The notes beneath the pieces were generated by a model. It was not told where the DNA came from. It saw nothing but the letters and a program-made list of their open reading frames with translations, and did not search any database. Made by a program: the position numbers and the translations under genes. 64,000 nucleotides of DNA from NCBI RefSeq assembly GCF_006345805.1, contig NC_043009.1:64604001-64668000 (forward strand), given 5' to 3'. This document shows, piece by piece, positions 4,283 to 49,528 of the stretch. Numbering within the stretch: the first letter of the stretch is position 1; every line of letters starts with the position of its first letter. The DNA comes from Octopus sinensis. Its lineage: Eukaryota.

Positions 4283-4315
4283 GTGTAAGCGCTTTCGATT
4301 AACCTTTTCAAACAC
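4283..4315 (-). ncRNA. Minimal type I hammerhead-like motif with U3/A8 core variant
   Basis: Minus strand GTGT-TTGAAAA-GGTTAATC-GAAAGCGCTT-ACAC: 4-bp stem I, weak stem II, palindromic stem III. Confidence 0.45.
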
Positions 4316-4530
4316 CCGTGCTCTTAGTTAATATATATGTGTAATATATATATATATATATATATATATATAATATATATATATATATAATATATATATA
4401 TATATATTATATATATATATATAGTATATATATATATTATATATATATTATATATATATATATATATATTATATATATATATATATATATACGCTGAGAG
4501 GGGAGGTAACCTCCCTCTGACTGTCTCTAG

Positions 4531-4584
4531 AATCACTAGACTACACTAGTTTTACTTATTTTGTAGGCATCATCAGTAGTGACT
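4531..4584 (-). ncRNA. Degenerate type I hammerhead motif
   Basis: Minus strand TCACTA-CTGATGA-TGCCT..AAGT-AAAAC-TA-GTG-TA-GTC-TAGTGA; stems I and III pair but G12 of GAAA is lost. Confidence 0.55.
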
Positions 4585-4785
4585 ATTCAGACGGCTAATT
4601 CCGTCTGCCGGTATATATATATTTTTACCATAAAAGTTTATGACTGATTTAGCGAAATGCTAATGCGTACAATTAAAAATTAATATAAACAGCTAGGTGC
4701 AATATAATGCTATAAAGGAAAAATTTAACCGTCACTAAATGTGAGTGAGGGTGCCGAAACATTTCGCTAAATCAGCCATAAATGT

Positions 4786-4900
4786 CTTGAGTAAAACACT
4801 TCATTTTACGTTGCTCCAGTACACTCTGGCGGCACAATACATACGCCACAGAATCCTGGAAGCTGGGCTTATGAGCTTATGACTCGAGAAAGACCTTTGA
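4786..4900 (+). mobile_element. Fragment of SINE family F
   Basis: TCTTGAGTAAAACACTTCATTT...CTTATGAGCTTATGACTCGAGAAAGACCTT resembles 61268-61545. Confidence 0.55.
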
Positions 4901-5899
4901 AAAAATACCTTTGTTTTTTTTATTTGCTATAATAAATAAAGGCATACATGTGTGTGTATATATATATATATATATATTATATATATATATATATATATAT
5001 ATATATTATATGTGTGTGTGTGTGTGTATATATATATGCGTTATATATACTATATATATAATGATGTATATATATATATATATATATATATATATTATAA
5101 ATATATATGATATCTCTTTTGCTTTCTCCCTATATGTATATATATATATATATATATATATATATATATATATATATATTATATATATATATATATATAT
5201 ATATATATGAAATTAATCTGTATCTTTATGAATCAGCACTGCATGCTGGAAGATCTAAGATAAGTTTAAAGTAGTTAGATTACATTTTTTTAACGCATAC
5301 GCCCCGAAAGTAAACAGATATAAATATATTTTGTTATTGTCTTTGCATCGAAAATAATACAGAAGATTATCTTGACACGTTACATGATTCTCTAGTCTTC
5401 TCACTTTGCAATCTCCTGCAGGGAGAACCTAAAACAATCATTATGTAAATCGAGCTAACTAAAAAGACTCCCGTAATTTGCATACCGTGCATTAGTCGAC
5501 AATGTAGTGAGTTTATTAAATATTTGGAGTATAAACAGTGTGCATTACAGAATCTATGATAAATTTCAAAGCGATCGCTGTAACTTATTTACGTGGGCAG
5601 AAGAACGAGGGATACGTATCCTCTGAGGAGTAGTCAACCAGCCGTGAAACAGGTGAGAATAACCTCCTTTATTTATTTTATTTTTGCGTTCAAAGAGAAT
5701 ACAGTGATACGTTCACACCTGTTTATTTCTACAGCAGGTGCGCAAACAGTATAGTCAACATCTTTTACATGGTATTCGAGCTGCATTTCAAGATTTTTAT
5801 ATATTTTTTCTTTTTTTCAAGAACAACTTGGTGCATCGGTGAACAGTCAACGGTGTTGGAGAGTATATAGATTAAAGCTTTAGTTGAGAAAAAGTTAGT

Positions 5900-6960
5900 T
5901 GACATGGAAGAGTGGAAGCTATCTGAATATCGGAAAAGAGTTGCCTATATCACGATGATTCGCGCTGGGTGTCAAAATGCCGACATCATGACCTATTTCT
6001 TTATTACCCACAAGGGGCTAAACACAGAGGGGACAAACAAGGACAGACATAGGTATTAAGTCGATTACATCGACCCCAATGCGTAACTGGTACTTATTTA
6101 TCGACCCCGAAAGGATGAAAGGCAAAGTCGACCTCGGCGGAATTTGAACTCACAACGTAACGCAGACGAAATACCTATTTCTTTATTACCCACAAGGGGC
6201 TGAACACAGAGGGGACAAACATGGACAGACATAGGTATTAAGTCGATTATATCGACCCCAGTGCTTAACTGGTACTTAATTTATCGACCCCGAAAGGATG
6301 AAAGGCAAAGTCAACCTCGGCGGAATTTGAACGCAGACGAAATACCGCTAAGCATTTCGCCCGGCGTGCTAACGTTTCTGCCAGCTCACCGCCTGACCGT
6401 TGCTCAAAGCTTGTGAACGCCGTAAAGGCTGTAAGACGTAACACGGACATCATGAAAATCAAGTGACCCCAAACTGGGATGAGCTTTGGGTACGATTCCA
6501 GTGGGAGTGACGTCATGCCGCTCCACGTCTTTGAACAGAGTCTTAGGCTCAATTCAGACGGCTATCTAGAACTGCATGAGACTGGTCAAAACCTGGTTGG
6601 AGAGGGTTGCTACTGGGAGGCCATATATGGGAGAGCAAAATTCGACTCCTTGCCATACTTTCAGAAAGTATCAGAAGTGGTTGTTGGAGAATTTCTACAA
6701 CTTCACCATCCCTAATGTCTGGCTTCCTAATTCTCCGTTTTTCAATTCCATGGATTACCATGCGTGGGGCACAGCTGAGAAAGACACCAACCGCTCTGCA
6801 TGCAACATCAAGGCCGAGCTGGTGGCGAAGATCAAGGAGATGTTCGAAGATCTTCCCAGGAACACTGTCAGGAACTCATGGCTTAGGTTTCGGAGCCGTG
6901 TTGCGGCCGAGGTGGCATATTTTGAGTTCTATTTTTCCTATTTGCATCAAAATACCTTCA
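5900..6960 (+). pseudogene. Decayed, internally deleted Tc1/mariner-superfamily transposase (maT-like D37D), interrupted by a SINE
   Basis: ORF 6576-6989 has EQ(N)STPCH...WLPNSPFFNSMDY with 37 residues between the second (D>N) and third catalytic positions; frameshifted; a probable N-terminal piece lies at about 5904-5990. Confidence 0.8.
5991..6393 (-). mobile_element. SINE family A with tandemly duplicated body and tail
   Basis: Two near-identical units (5991-6172, 6173-about 6345) and one head ending at 6393; candidate TSD TGACC at 5989-5993 and 6394-6398. Confidence 0.9.
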
Positions 6961-46567: not shown

Positions 46568-46855
46568 CGGCCATCGGAAAAATTTCCTCTAGTTACAAAA
46601 TATCGAGATCTCTTTCTTTCTTTTGTTATCTTACCGTTTTTACCAATATAATATATATATATATATATATATATATATACGTTTATATATTTGTTTTGCA
46701 AGATTTTTGATGCGAAATCGTGTGTTGAAACAGATATTGTTGTATTTAAGAATAGTCATTTTGCCAGTTTAGCCAATAAAAATACACGCACTATATATTT
46801 GGTGTTAATTTGCTTCAGCGTTATTTATTTTTTACATTAATCTTAATCTTATTTC

Positions 46856-46900
46856 GGCCAGAATTCTTTCGTCACAATCCTGTGACCTCATCAGTGGTCC
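46856..46900 (-). ncRNA. Type I hammerhead ribozyme, intact core
   Basis: Minus strand GGACCA-CTGATGA-G-GTCACA-GGAT-TGTGAC-GAAA-GAA-TTC-TGGCC; 6-bp stem II, minimal stem III, UUC triplet. Confidence 0.72.
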
Positions 46901-47159
46901 TTTGCTTTCTTCTTTCTTATTTGTGTGTCTCTCTTTACTAACGGTCAGCCATTTTGTATTTTGTATTCCTATTGTATGTGTCTTCATTTGCGCATGCGTA
47001 TGCCTCTATGTGTGTCTATGTTTAGTTAGTGTGTGTGTGTGGGGGAGTGCCTGTAATATTTGTATCTCCTGTGTGTGTAAGTATGTATGTATGTGATTAT
47101 TCAGTTTCATTTCAAGATTTCTTGTCAATAAAGAGATCGTGAAATAAAACTGACTAATG

Positions 47160-47616
47160 ACATACATACATACATACCAACCTACATACATACATACATA
47201 CATACACACTAGCATACATACATACATACATACATACATGCATACATACATACATACATACATACATACATACATACATACATACATATATACATGCATA
47301 CATACATACATACACACTAGCATACATACATACATACATACATGCATACATACATACATACATACATACATACATACATACATACATACATACATATATT
47401 GTCAGATCTCTCATCCGGCATCCAGAAATCTGGTATTTTAAAAAATCCAGATATACTGTGCAATATCGAAGCATTATATACATAAATGTATGTATGTATG
47501 TATGTATGTATGTATGTATGTATGTATGTATGTATCCATGCATGCATGCATGTATGTATGTATGTATGTATGTATGTATGTATGTATGTATGTATGTATG
47601 TATGTGTATGTATGTA
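47160..47616. repeat. (TACA)n followed by inverted (TATG)n
   Basis: Direct reading; unique spacer of about 90 bp. Confidence 0.95.
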
Positions 47617-48925
47617 TTGCATACGAGTGATTGAACAAGCGAAGGTAAGTGGCACTCAACAAATTTGTTACATATATATTTTTAGTGTAGCCACATATAT
47701 TTAATATCACTTTGACTCATCTTCATATAACTTCAAGCTACATGGGCGCGCAGGACACGTCCATTTCATCAAATATTATAAGAAAAATGAGCGACTTGGG
47801 ACAATTTCAAGATAGCTTCTAGGTGTTAGGCGCTATTGATCAACTCCGGTCTCGTGCTATTAATGCTGTGAAAGCGACACCAGTTATTTTCTTTATTCTA
47901 AGGTCCGTCCGTGTGCTCGGACAGGATGTTGGCAGGAAGCAGTCTCCTTCACTTTAGCAGCAGGCTGCAGTATTGTATGCTCAGCGACATCAGTTTCTTG
48001 TAGTGAGTACCGCAAGAGTTCTTTTACGTGGAATAAACCAAATTTTGAAACTGAGTTTGGATAATCAACATGAATGGACTGTAGACGGGCGGCCGGGATT
48101 AAATACCCTGACCTTGTGTATAGGACAGCTTGGCTAGGGTGATATATCGGGCACTCCATCTGATGTTGGTGAAATCACTCCGAAGGTCGCGGAACCTCTA
48201 GATGAAGCAGACAGAGTGGTGGTACAAATTTCCCATAGCACTGCACCTGAAGGAGTGTATGTTCTGTATATACCTTCGCTTTAAATTATCGGCCGTTATG
48301 CTCGTGTAAGACATTGATGTCTAAATGTAAAACATTATAAAGATCTTAGAGAAGACTTTTCTTTTCACATTTCTCTCGCTGATACATCTTAGAAAGAAGA
48401 TGTGTCAGCGAAATCCTGGTACATCGCTCTCTCACTCCAACTATCACACTAGGAATGTACCGCTGGGTGAAAGGGTGTTTCCGTTTGTTCACAGCTATGT
48501 AGGCGACTAAAACAAATAGCAATAAAGGTACATGTTTCTATACACACACACACACAGACACACACACACACACACACATATATATATATATATACATATA
48601 TATACATATATATACATACACACACACACATACATATATATATATATATATATAGATAGATAGATATATACGTCTATATACATACATTTGTATGTACATA
48701 TATATAAACACATATACATACATATATATGCATGTACATTCATATGCATATAGAAATACATACTCATACAGGCATACATGCATACATACATACAAAAATA
48801 ACATATATAATATATATGTTATATATGTATATATATATATATATATATATTATATATAAATATGCTATATATATATGACACCATATATATGTATATGTAT
48901 ATTATACACGCACACACAATTTTTC

Positions 48926-49528
48926 CAGATTTTAATATGCTAGACCACTAGTTTTAAATTGATATTAAATTAATATTCAGTTTTTCACCCTTATTAATTT
49001 TAATTTTAATTTAAATAATTATGTTCTCTAAACGGCAAAATTCACTGCAGTGAATTATTTTCTGCAGAATTATTTCGGTATTTTGGCGCACCAAAACGAA
49101 GACTTTTGAAAGATAACCCCAAATGTAATTGGTAGAAATGTATACATGTTCAAACTCATGCGGACGTTTCGTGTATAGTTCTTCAAATTATATTTCCAAT
49201 GACGATCATACTGATGAGCTACAGACAATTACGTAAGTAATTTGAGTAAGTGTTAATAGCGAAACTAGTTTATGATTAATCTATATTTTTGTTTCTTCTC
49301 ATTTGTCTTGCTCGCTTACGTTCTGACGTTTGCTAAATTTTCTTGAGAACATTCCTTTCTTAGTGGTAAGACCATAGCGGATATACTTCTAGCATAATGG
49401 ATGTCTACGTAGTGGTCATCCTTCTTATATGTATTTAATATAATTTTTGTGAATCTTCAGATTATAATACTCTAGACCACTGATTCTAAATTGATATTAA
49501 TCAAATTAATATTCAATTTTTCACCCTT
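48926..49528 (+). mobile_element. Element of about 600 bp with terminal direct repeats and a central hammerhead
   Basis: CAGATT.TAATA..CTAGACCACT...TTTTTCACCCTT at 48926-48992 and 49458-49528 (period 532 bp); TA-rich microsatellite flanks. Confidence 0.7.
49205..49276 (+). ncRNA. Type I hammerhead ribozyme, intact core
   Basis: Stem I ATCATA/TATGAT; CTGATGA 49211-49217; stem II GCTA/TAGC; GAAAC 49261-49265; palindromic stem III ACTAGT; GTT triplet 49268-49270. Confidence 0.82.

Follow-up and report, generated by a model that had tools for sequence, protein, structure and literature searches.

The hammerhead-like motifs scattered over a 64,000-nucleotide (nt) stretch of the Octopus sinensis genome (contig NC_043009.1, positions 64,604,001 to 64,668,000; G000:C13:64604001-64668000) are very probably minimal type I hammerhead ribozymes carried on 3′ stubs that Penelope-like retroelements of at least eleven families have left behind. 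This stretch, called here the window, has 36% G+C, is dense in microsatellites and belongs to a genome of 2.72 Gb. Twelve motifs had been listed in it as unrelated minimal hammerheads by an earlier reading of the letters alone (the sequence-only reading). All twelve are present where they were placed, and eleven of them belong to hammerhead families; the exception, at 5617, has a single relative in the genome. Each family is named below after the window position of its motif.

Hammerhead families in the window

A strict type I descriptor matched the window three times (18214+, 49211+ and 36105-) and never in 30 block-wise dinucleotide shuffles. A relaxed descriptor, which admits any Watson-Crick 3-8 pair or U6 and was tuned after the families were known, gave five matches (17621-, 18214+, 32632+, 46894-, 49211+) against a mean of 0.025 and a maximum of 1 in 40 shuffles. 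The sequence-only reading had named shuffled sequence as the control for its motifs, and with both descriptors the window counts lie far above it. The window also appears denser than average, with five relaxed matches in 64 kb compared to four in a 400-kb sample from 40 places (0-2 in eight shuffles), a comparison that carries a caveat because the relaxed descriptor was fitted to this window.

Rfam hammerhead families gave no match in the window at the gathering threshold, scans at the E-value level were swamped by microsatellite noise, and a repeat search with Tandem Repeats Finder recovered only simple repeats and one unrelated abundant repeat. The silence of Rfam is what chance matches in AT-rich, repeat-rich DNA would produce, and chance may indeed account for 5617 and for 36105-, a strict-descriptor match outside the listed sites that has a long non-palindromic insert, is absent from the relaxed scan and was set aside as probably fortuitous. 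For eleven of the twelve sites, however, chance is refuted by the shuffles, by the existence of families, by the position of the motifs in pseudo-long terminal repeats (pLTRs), by covariation and by reversed-pattern controls (0-1 matches, against thousands for the real patterns), and as a general explanation it is practically out of the question.

Searches of the octopus genome itself placed the eleven sites in eleven different multi-copy families, with 93 to 2,543 first-look candidates each (all lower bounds), among which 40-45 were scored matches for every site. The earlier claim of many distinct families rather than one recent repeat is thereby borne out. Alignments of 15-30 copies per family show the hammerhead topology in all eleven, and the type I arrangement with a short, mostly palindromic stem III that had been read from the window recurs in the aligned copies. 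The core is CUGANGA or its U3-A8 variant in nine families (weakly so in 19696); those of 32628 (U6) and 17594 (A3-U8) differ, and both families retain all other features of minimal hammerheads despite the core change. Palindromes found in stem III are CG, GCGC, CCGG, CUAG, CAUGUG, CAGCUG, CGGCCG and similar, with the exception of 46856, which is only half-palindromic, and of 4531, which has a 4-bp stem. An extra base stands between positions 9 and 10.1 in six of the eleven families, and a G10.1-C11.1 pair closes stem II in ten, 19696 having an extra A before GAAA.

Six window copies (18208, 49205, 46856, 32628, 17594 and 4283) are as good as their own families, two (11605 and 46507) carry one or two damaging changes, and three (4531, 43711 and 19696) are dead. 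In predicted folds, stems I and II form with high probability in the window copies of 18208, 49205 and 17594. The earlier grading of the cores therefore stands in part. The intact calls at 18208, 46856 and 49205 hold, whereas the core called decayed at 17594 carries an A3-U8 pair common to its family. Of the near-intact cores, that of 32628 has a family-wide A6U and that of 4283 a U3-A8 pair; the copy at 4531 is dead in the window (G12A and a mismatch that breaks stem II), and the defects at 46507 and 11605 can be narrowed to A15.1C and one stem II mismatch, respectively. At 19696 the letters taken for the core are stem II: the plus-strand copy has no core, and what is left of one is found at 19677-19683 on the opposite, minus strand.

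Probable Penelope-like parents of the hammerheads

In longer copies elsewhere in the genome, six of the eleven families extend upstream into an open reading frame (ORF) for a GIY-YIG endonuclease or for a reverse transcriptase (RT) with endonuclease. Two are Hydra-type (18208 and 43711) and four Neptune/Nematis-type (4283, 17594, 32628 and 46856). The hammerhead lies 3′ of the ORF in each, which upholds the proposed link to Penelope-like elements and, for these six families, overturns the description of the elements as non-autonomous. Because longer copies run upstream into ORFs, the pieces seen in the window are best described as 5′-truncated stubs. One of the remaining five families (11605) has the tRNA-like head of a short interspersed element (SINE), and in the other four (4531, 19696, 46507 and 49205) no ORF was found.

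The 18208 family provides the most complete parent. Its window hammerhead (18208..18293, plus strand) is intact, with a CUGAGGA core, a 7-bp stem II, the palindrome CAUG in stem III and a GUC cleavage triplet. It sits in a 5′-truncated stub of about 170 nt (18169-18337, plus strand) from a young Hydra-type Penelope-like element, preceded by a 265-nt inverted piece of the same element (17903..18168, minus strand) that holds the 3′ half of the hammerhead and downstream pLTR sequence. Family copies are 98-99% identical. A full pLTR-ORF-pLTR copy is found at locus L297, where the two hammerheads are 2,864 nt apart and the two pLTRs flank a single ORF with RT and C-terminal GIY-YIG; in the other five families only pieces of the ORF were seen. 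The nearest Atlas clusters of the 18208-family ORF carry RVT_1, GIY-YIG and HTH_animal, and many of these look-alikes come from molluscs. Its protein has a DKT motif and CxxC/CxH, and lacks both the inner cysteine pair (no CCHH) and the linker cysteines. We assign the family to the Hydra clade of Craig 2021 (PMC8557442) on the strength of the DKT motif, CxxC/CxH and the absence of inner cysteines, all of which agree with the description given there. Sibling Hydra families with 57-76% protein identity and hammerheads of their own are present at L300 (G000:C28:17608001-17618000), positions 3330-7000, and at L218, positions 900-1400; L300 also carries a 469-bp inverted pLTR of 99% identity. Among three sibling Hydra families, stem III changes only from palindrome to palindrome.

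The second Hydra-type family is represented in the window by a decayed copy (43709..43792, plus strand; U4C, stem I broken). Family members have a canonical core, a long stem II and a palindromic stem III at the 3′ end of a Hydra-type element, and upstream an endonuclease with a CxCx5C linker, CxxC and CxH (loci L186, L177 and L182).

Among the Neptune/Nematis-type families, 46856 has the canonical core. Its intact window hammerhead (46856..46900, minus strand) lies in a 3′ stub and combines CUGAUGA with an extra G, a stem II of 5-6 bp and a 3-bp stem I; an endonuclease ORF with a C-x4-C-x2-C linker precedes the hammerhead at L481, L482, L472, L474 and L487. An extrapolation of family copy numbers from the 400-kb sample was abandoned, as three 46856 matches there fell in one locus and the exact count for the family is 430. 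The 4283 hammerhead (4283..4315, minus strand) has a U3-A8 core (UUGAAAA), an extra G, a vestigial stem II and a palindromic GCGC stem III, and all 11 of its 11 exact genome matches are U3-A8. The end of an endonuclease ORF lies about 130-155 nt upstream of it at L129, L136, L400 and L406; the inner cysteines are visible in these fragments and the linker is not.

The setting of the motifs in (TA)n was also part of the sequence-only reading. It holds for most of them, (TA)5 being present within 500 nt on both sides at 8 of the 12 sites compared to 12.9% of background positions, and fails for 11605, which is set in (AAY)n. Within 300 nt downstream, (TA)5 occurs in 27/30, 18/25, 16/25, 15/20, 12/20, 15/19, 14/15 and 13/15 loci of eight families, against a background of 10.8%. 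Of 214 loci inspected for a second hammerhead within 1.5 kb, 27 had an inverted one and 5 had one in the same orientation. This excess of inverted over tandem neighbours is Penelope-like and unlike the arrays of retrozymes. Truncation at the 5′ end, inverted 5′ pieces and partial tandems are all seen among the copies.

It could be argued that the motifs belong mainly to non-autonomous retrozymes, spreading via tandem repeats and circular RNA. The window pieces are short and ORF-less, the 49205 hammerhead sits in a unit of about 530 nt with a terminal direct repeat, a few head-to-tail dimers exist in the 32628 family, and pLTRs have been put forward as the origin of animal retrozymes in a 2026 preprint (bioRxiv 10.64898/2026.07.22.740005). 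Against this, ORFs refute the idea for six families, same-strand neighbours are confined to the 5 of 214 loci mentioned above and no multi-unit arrays were seen, and we regard retrozymes as an unlikely main source.

Families with altered cores

The counts in this section are exact matches from fixed-pattern genome scans, and the base tallies of the first 100 matches were made by eye. The 32628 hammerhead (32628..32663, plus strand) has an A6U core (CUGUNGA), an extra A, a 4-bp stem II and a CG stem III, and lies in a (TA)n-bounded stub (32560-32755, plus strand) of a Neptune/Nematis-type element whose 3′ region is long and rich in CT. ORF remnant and hammerhead share one locus at L450, L451 and L457, with RT/endonuclease pieces beyond the CT-rich region. 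Its 33-nt pattern, with positions 6, 7 and 17 left free, has 12,179 matches in the genome and none when reversed. U6 is found in 11,795 of these and another base in 384; in 156 of the U6 matches the cleavage base (position 17) is C or G. Among the first 100 matches, position 7 is U in 52, A in 23, C in 13 and G in 12, and the cleavage base is A in 63 and U in 37. The hammerhead also occurs in assembled contigs of four public runs, from which RNA ends, strand and level are not readable; within it, only position 7, the base at the cleavage site and a single CpG vary there by at least 10%. The head-to-tail dimers of this family are 205-216 nt long.

The 17594 hammerhead (17587..17626, minus strand) has an A3-U8 core (AUGAAUA) and a 2-bp stem II with a GAAA loop, and an endonuclease ORF with the C-x4-C-x2-C linker lies upstream in family copies at L215, L209 and L204. 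There are 248 matches; in the first 100, the core is A3-U8 in 86 and position 7 is A in 42 and U in 55. Stem I is AUC/GAU or GUC/GAC, and once GCC/GGC. In the window copy, a 5-nt duplication (17592-17604) of the stem III palindrome has produced a 4-bp stem III. Such a duplication, a one-off here and the norm in the 4531 family, converts a dimer-type hammerhead to one whose stem III has 4 bp.

A G3-C8 family was met outside the window, in the random sample and, with the relaxed descriptor, about 26 kb to its right (L306, G000:C13:64688001-64698000, minus strand, about 5784); further copies are at L280:8001 and L368-L397. The 5′ half of its motif has 7,055 matches, and 90 of the first 100 are G3-C8. 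Copies form a unit of about 235 nt, often in head-to-head inverted pairs and (TA)n-tailed, with no ORF in 30 loci. Since the family is young, the case for it is made by intact topology and not by covariation.

All four Watson-Crick 3-8 pairs are thus found in one genome. Summed over five families (32628, 11605, 17594, G3-C8 and 46856), there are at least 23,049 exact motif matches genome-wide, and searches limited to CUGANGA overlook at least 19,000 in this genome. Where families are old enough to inform (32628, 49205, 11605 and 17594), position 7 varies while the neighbouring core positions hold, which is a signature of constraint; 46856 and 18208, as young families, say nothing on this point. 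In the parsed cores of 49205, position 7 is A in 9, U in 7, G in 3 and C in 2, and 3 of the 24 copies parsed have C-G in place of a U-A pair of stem I. Stem I also covaries in 17594, where one of its pairs is G-C in 13 and A-U in 10 of 26 distinct copies, with a covariation score of 0.106 against 0.064 in shuffled columns (reached in 0 of 500).

Possible cleavage, folding and effects on the host

The arrangement of the copies suggests a life cycle in which the hammerhead acts for the element. It lies in the 3′ pLTR just past the ORF, as seen in copies here. The Anolis Penelope protein nicks AT-rich DNA and starts reverse transcription inside its RNA (PMC11167929); by analogy, the GIY-YIG endonuclease would nick AT-rich DNA in the octopus, and the RT would begin its copy of the RNA downstream (3′) of the hammerhead. 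Every insertion, however short, would then retain the hammerhead because copying starts 3′ of it. Early stops of copying would leave stubs, and template switches would leave inversions. The short palindromic stem III may pair with a second copy, be it in the partner pLTR of a tandem or on a separate RNA, and the resulting dimer, probably helped by protein, could process the master transcript while the stubs decay. Selection would act on master elements only, and on that account families may differ wholly in their helices yet retain the fold.

Judged from their sequences, the hammerheads likely acted on the RNA of their parent elements, and the lone window copies are probably inert. The altered cores would seem, on balance, able to cut. 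The A3-U8, G3-C8, U3-A8 and U6 cores can be read as tolerated working variants, probably slow. More tentatively, Penelope-like elements may run working hammerheads with all four 3-8 Watson-Crick pairs, plus U6 in the most abundant family.

An alternative is that the hammerheads, above all those with variant cores, no longer cut and persist because their fold serves the RT-endonuclease protein as a signal, or merely hitch-hike. An A6C change slowed cleavage to less than 0.1 per min (Perreault 2011, PMC3088659). C3G/G8C restored activity only in part in the Anolis element, whose catalytic mutants still inserted in vitro (PMC11167929). In addition, Naiads multiply without canonical hammerheads, and the U6 family 32628 is the most abundant family counted. 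A dead core should nevertheless drift, and here positions 3 and 8 remain Watson-Crick in all four combinations. Within 32628, at least three changes have occurred at position 7 and one at the cleavage base (where no subfamily has G), and U has persisted at the remaining free position of the core. We therefore consider the loss of cleavage possible, though doubtful.

Several observations weigh against hammerheads of Penelope-like origin that work by cutting. The Anolis hammerhead was dispensable for insertion in vitro, and no RNA ends mapped to its cut site (PMC11167929); because of these two results, conservation may reflect fold and not cutting. In the octopus, the ORFs were unrecognised by Pfam and PDB searches, and their assignment to clades depends on motifs, Atlas neighbours and comparison by eye. 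No ORF was found within 1.5-kb flanks in 20 loci of the 4531 family, 15 of 19696, 15 of 46507 and 25 of 49205. Three families lack the (TA)n signal in the 300 nt downstream: 11605 (1/15 loci), 19696 (5/15) and 43711 (3/15). Stem II of 4283 barely forms in the predicted fold (p about 0.01). The shuffled control for the stem I covariation of 17594 ignores kinship, the stem I switch amounts to one or two events between subfamilies, and by pair count alone the result is only 65/500.

It had also been proposed that copies could cut host pre-mRNA if the region is intronic, and in doing so they might regulate host genes. In favour are the well-formed stems I and II predicted for three or four of the window copies and the genome-wide number of motifs given above. 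Among 96 of 192 candidate ORFs scanned for host exons, none reached the Pfam cut-off (two weak matches fell below it), and the copies decay neutrally in place. In Cervera 2014 (PMC4209133), minimal hammerheads gave no cleavage as monomers and little as dimers, and the Anolis hammerhead cuts only with its protein (PMC11167929). Regulation of host genes by these copies is therefore very improbable.

Remaining families and neighbouring elements

The 11605 element differs from all others in layout. In the window (11404-11740) its tRNA-like head is joined to a hammerhead by an (AAY)n linker. The head (11445..11520, plus strand) has A- and B-box-like stretches and a short inverted self-piece in front, and the minimal hammerhead (11606..11649, plus strand) shows CpG decay in stem III beside the stem II mismatch. 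Head and hammerhead belong together: the head is upstream in 15 of 30 hammerhead loci, and the hammerhead is downstream in 18 of 25 head loci. The likeness to tRNA is weak (relaxed ARAGORN 4/25, default ARAGORN 0/29, no Rfam tRNA match). The family has at least 3,137 exact hammerhead matches, the first 100 having A6 in 97 and position 7 as U in 80, A in 17 and C in 3, and no tandem copies were found in 15 loci. It is likely a tRNA-promoter SINE that borrows Penelope machinery. Adjoining this element, and absent from the earlier list, is a remnant of the end of a Hydra-type GIY-YIG endonuclease from a separate Penelope-like insertion (11770..12003, minus strand), which tblastn matches to the ORF of the 43711 family at 44% over 78 aa.

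Four families without a linked ORF complete the set. The intact 49205 hammerhead (49204..49277, plus strand) has a 7-bp stem I and the palindrome CUAG. The 46507 copy (46506..46568, minus strand) comes from a family whose core is canonical and whose palindromic stem III has 4 bp; in one subfamily (L143, L147-L149), U4C is present in 5 of 14 copies and is possibly an inherited core change. The dead copy of 4531 lies at 4531..4583 (minus strand) and belongs to a family in which the core is canonical and stem III has 4 bp. An ORF in L118/L300 was considered as the gene of this family and rejected, as it has its own hammerhead and belongs to another element. The old 19696 family is represented by a decayed inverted pair (19561..19790), the minus copy at 19561-19690 with a damaged core and the plus copy with only the 3′ half (GAAA at 19740). 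A type II/III topology was considered for it and rejected. A further remnant of this family, not in the earlier list, lies at 36383..36480 (plus strand).

The candidate at 5617..5661 (plus strand) has CUGAGGA and GAAA, with G at the cleavage position and no stem II. It is unsupported as a hammerhead and, with one genome relative of 75% identity, is possibly an old relic.

Elsewhere in the window, 6570-6989 (plus strand) and 37262-37732 hold fragments resembling Tc1/mariner-type transposase, with no Pfam match. A very abundant unrelated short repeat, probably a SINE, occupies 22567-22733, 23284-23450, 38787-38941, 41593-41766, 44323-44533 and 63635-64000. Outside the window, ORFs similar in appearance to a Helitron Rep/helicase lie beside a 17594-family copy (L293, 1232-5866, minus strand).

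Relation to known systems and significance

That minimal hammerheads from Penelope elements can be dense in a genome is already known. Coelacanth and Xenopus have 4,000-9,000 of them (PMC4209133), and the axolotl 120,000; the octopus counts, at least 23,049 in five families, are above the former and below the latter. The minimal hammerheads of Cervera 2014 (PMC4209133) share with those described here the type I topology, the short palindromic stem III, the extra base between 9 and 10.1 and the U3-A8 variant, and likewise occur as many unlike families per genome, mostly as single truncated copies, with opposite-strand pairs 100-700 nt apart. Among the representatives covered from their Fig. S3, the cores are CUGANGA, UUGANAA or UUGAAGA, and there is no cephalopod and no A3-U8, G3-C8 or U6 core.

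Craig 2021 (PMC8557442) described Hydra-1_Obim of Octopus bimaculoides, with a (TA)n target and a hammerhead near its 3′ end, in a Hydra clade of which nearly all families insert in (TA)n. The Hydra-type families here agree with that clade in the C-terminal endonuclease without CCHH, DKT, CxxC/CxH, the CxCx5C linker (43711 family), (TA)n and the 3′ hammerhead. The 18208 and 43711 families are distinct from Hydra-1_Obim and differ from it in the hammerhead, although one octopus element resembles the Hydra-1_Obim protein in a comparison made by eye only, and 18208 further departs from the clade in its lost linker cysteines and very young age. The Neptune and Nematis clades of the same study share with our four families the C-x4-C-x2-C linker before GIY-YIG, two cysteines inside it and its C-terminal position; three of the four have non-canonical cores, and the joint label Neptune/Nematis covers both clades. 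In File S2 of Craig 2021, every core is CUGANGA.

The 11605 family has in common with Sm-alpha and Sj-alpha of Schistosoma (PMC6765202) a polymerase III-type head followed by a hammerhead. It differs from them in its minimal rather than canonical hammerhead, its (AAY)n linker, its Penelope-type inverted 5′ pieces and the lack of tandems in its loci. Metazoan non-LTR (non-long terminal repeat) retrozymes (PMC7229834; bioRxiv 10.64898/2026.07.22.740005) are similar in their short ORF-less units, type I hammerhead and proposed pLTR origin, but they are tandem repeats with a hammerhead per unit, whereas the octopus copies are nearly all solo or inverted and six families have ORFs. The core variants of Perreault 2011 (PMC3088659) include U3-A8 covariation and a change at position 6 (A6C). 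Those were isolated and rare, whereas in the octopus whole families with hundreds to more than 11,000 copies have U6, A3-U8 or G3-C8 as their norm.

The largest survey of these ribozymes is reportedly that of Lünse 2017. In the literature covered, to which that survey and Repbase/Dfam do not belong, no natural A3-U8, G3-C8 or A6U hammerhead was found, and their absence from print is uncertain. With that uncertainty, the family-wide core variants may be the new part relative to the literature found.

Why Penelope-like elements keep a hammerhead that cuts poorly and is dispensable for insertion in vitro is a puzzle, and the octopus families sharpen it, since very successful ones carry cores predicted to be slow by biochemistry (U6, A3-U8, G3-C8) and yet show a constrained pattern. 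If the variant cores work, the hammerhead consensus would be rewritten for protein-assisted ribozymes, and many animal hammerheads, a large part of the total, would be escaping standard searches. If Penelope machinery does move a hammerhead SINE with a tRNA-like head, that would be a second new item. The variant families would also let nature itself test the need of Penelope elements for cleavage: they could reveal if selection acts on cutting or on the fold, and if the accepted consensus of the core has been drawn too tightly.

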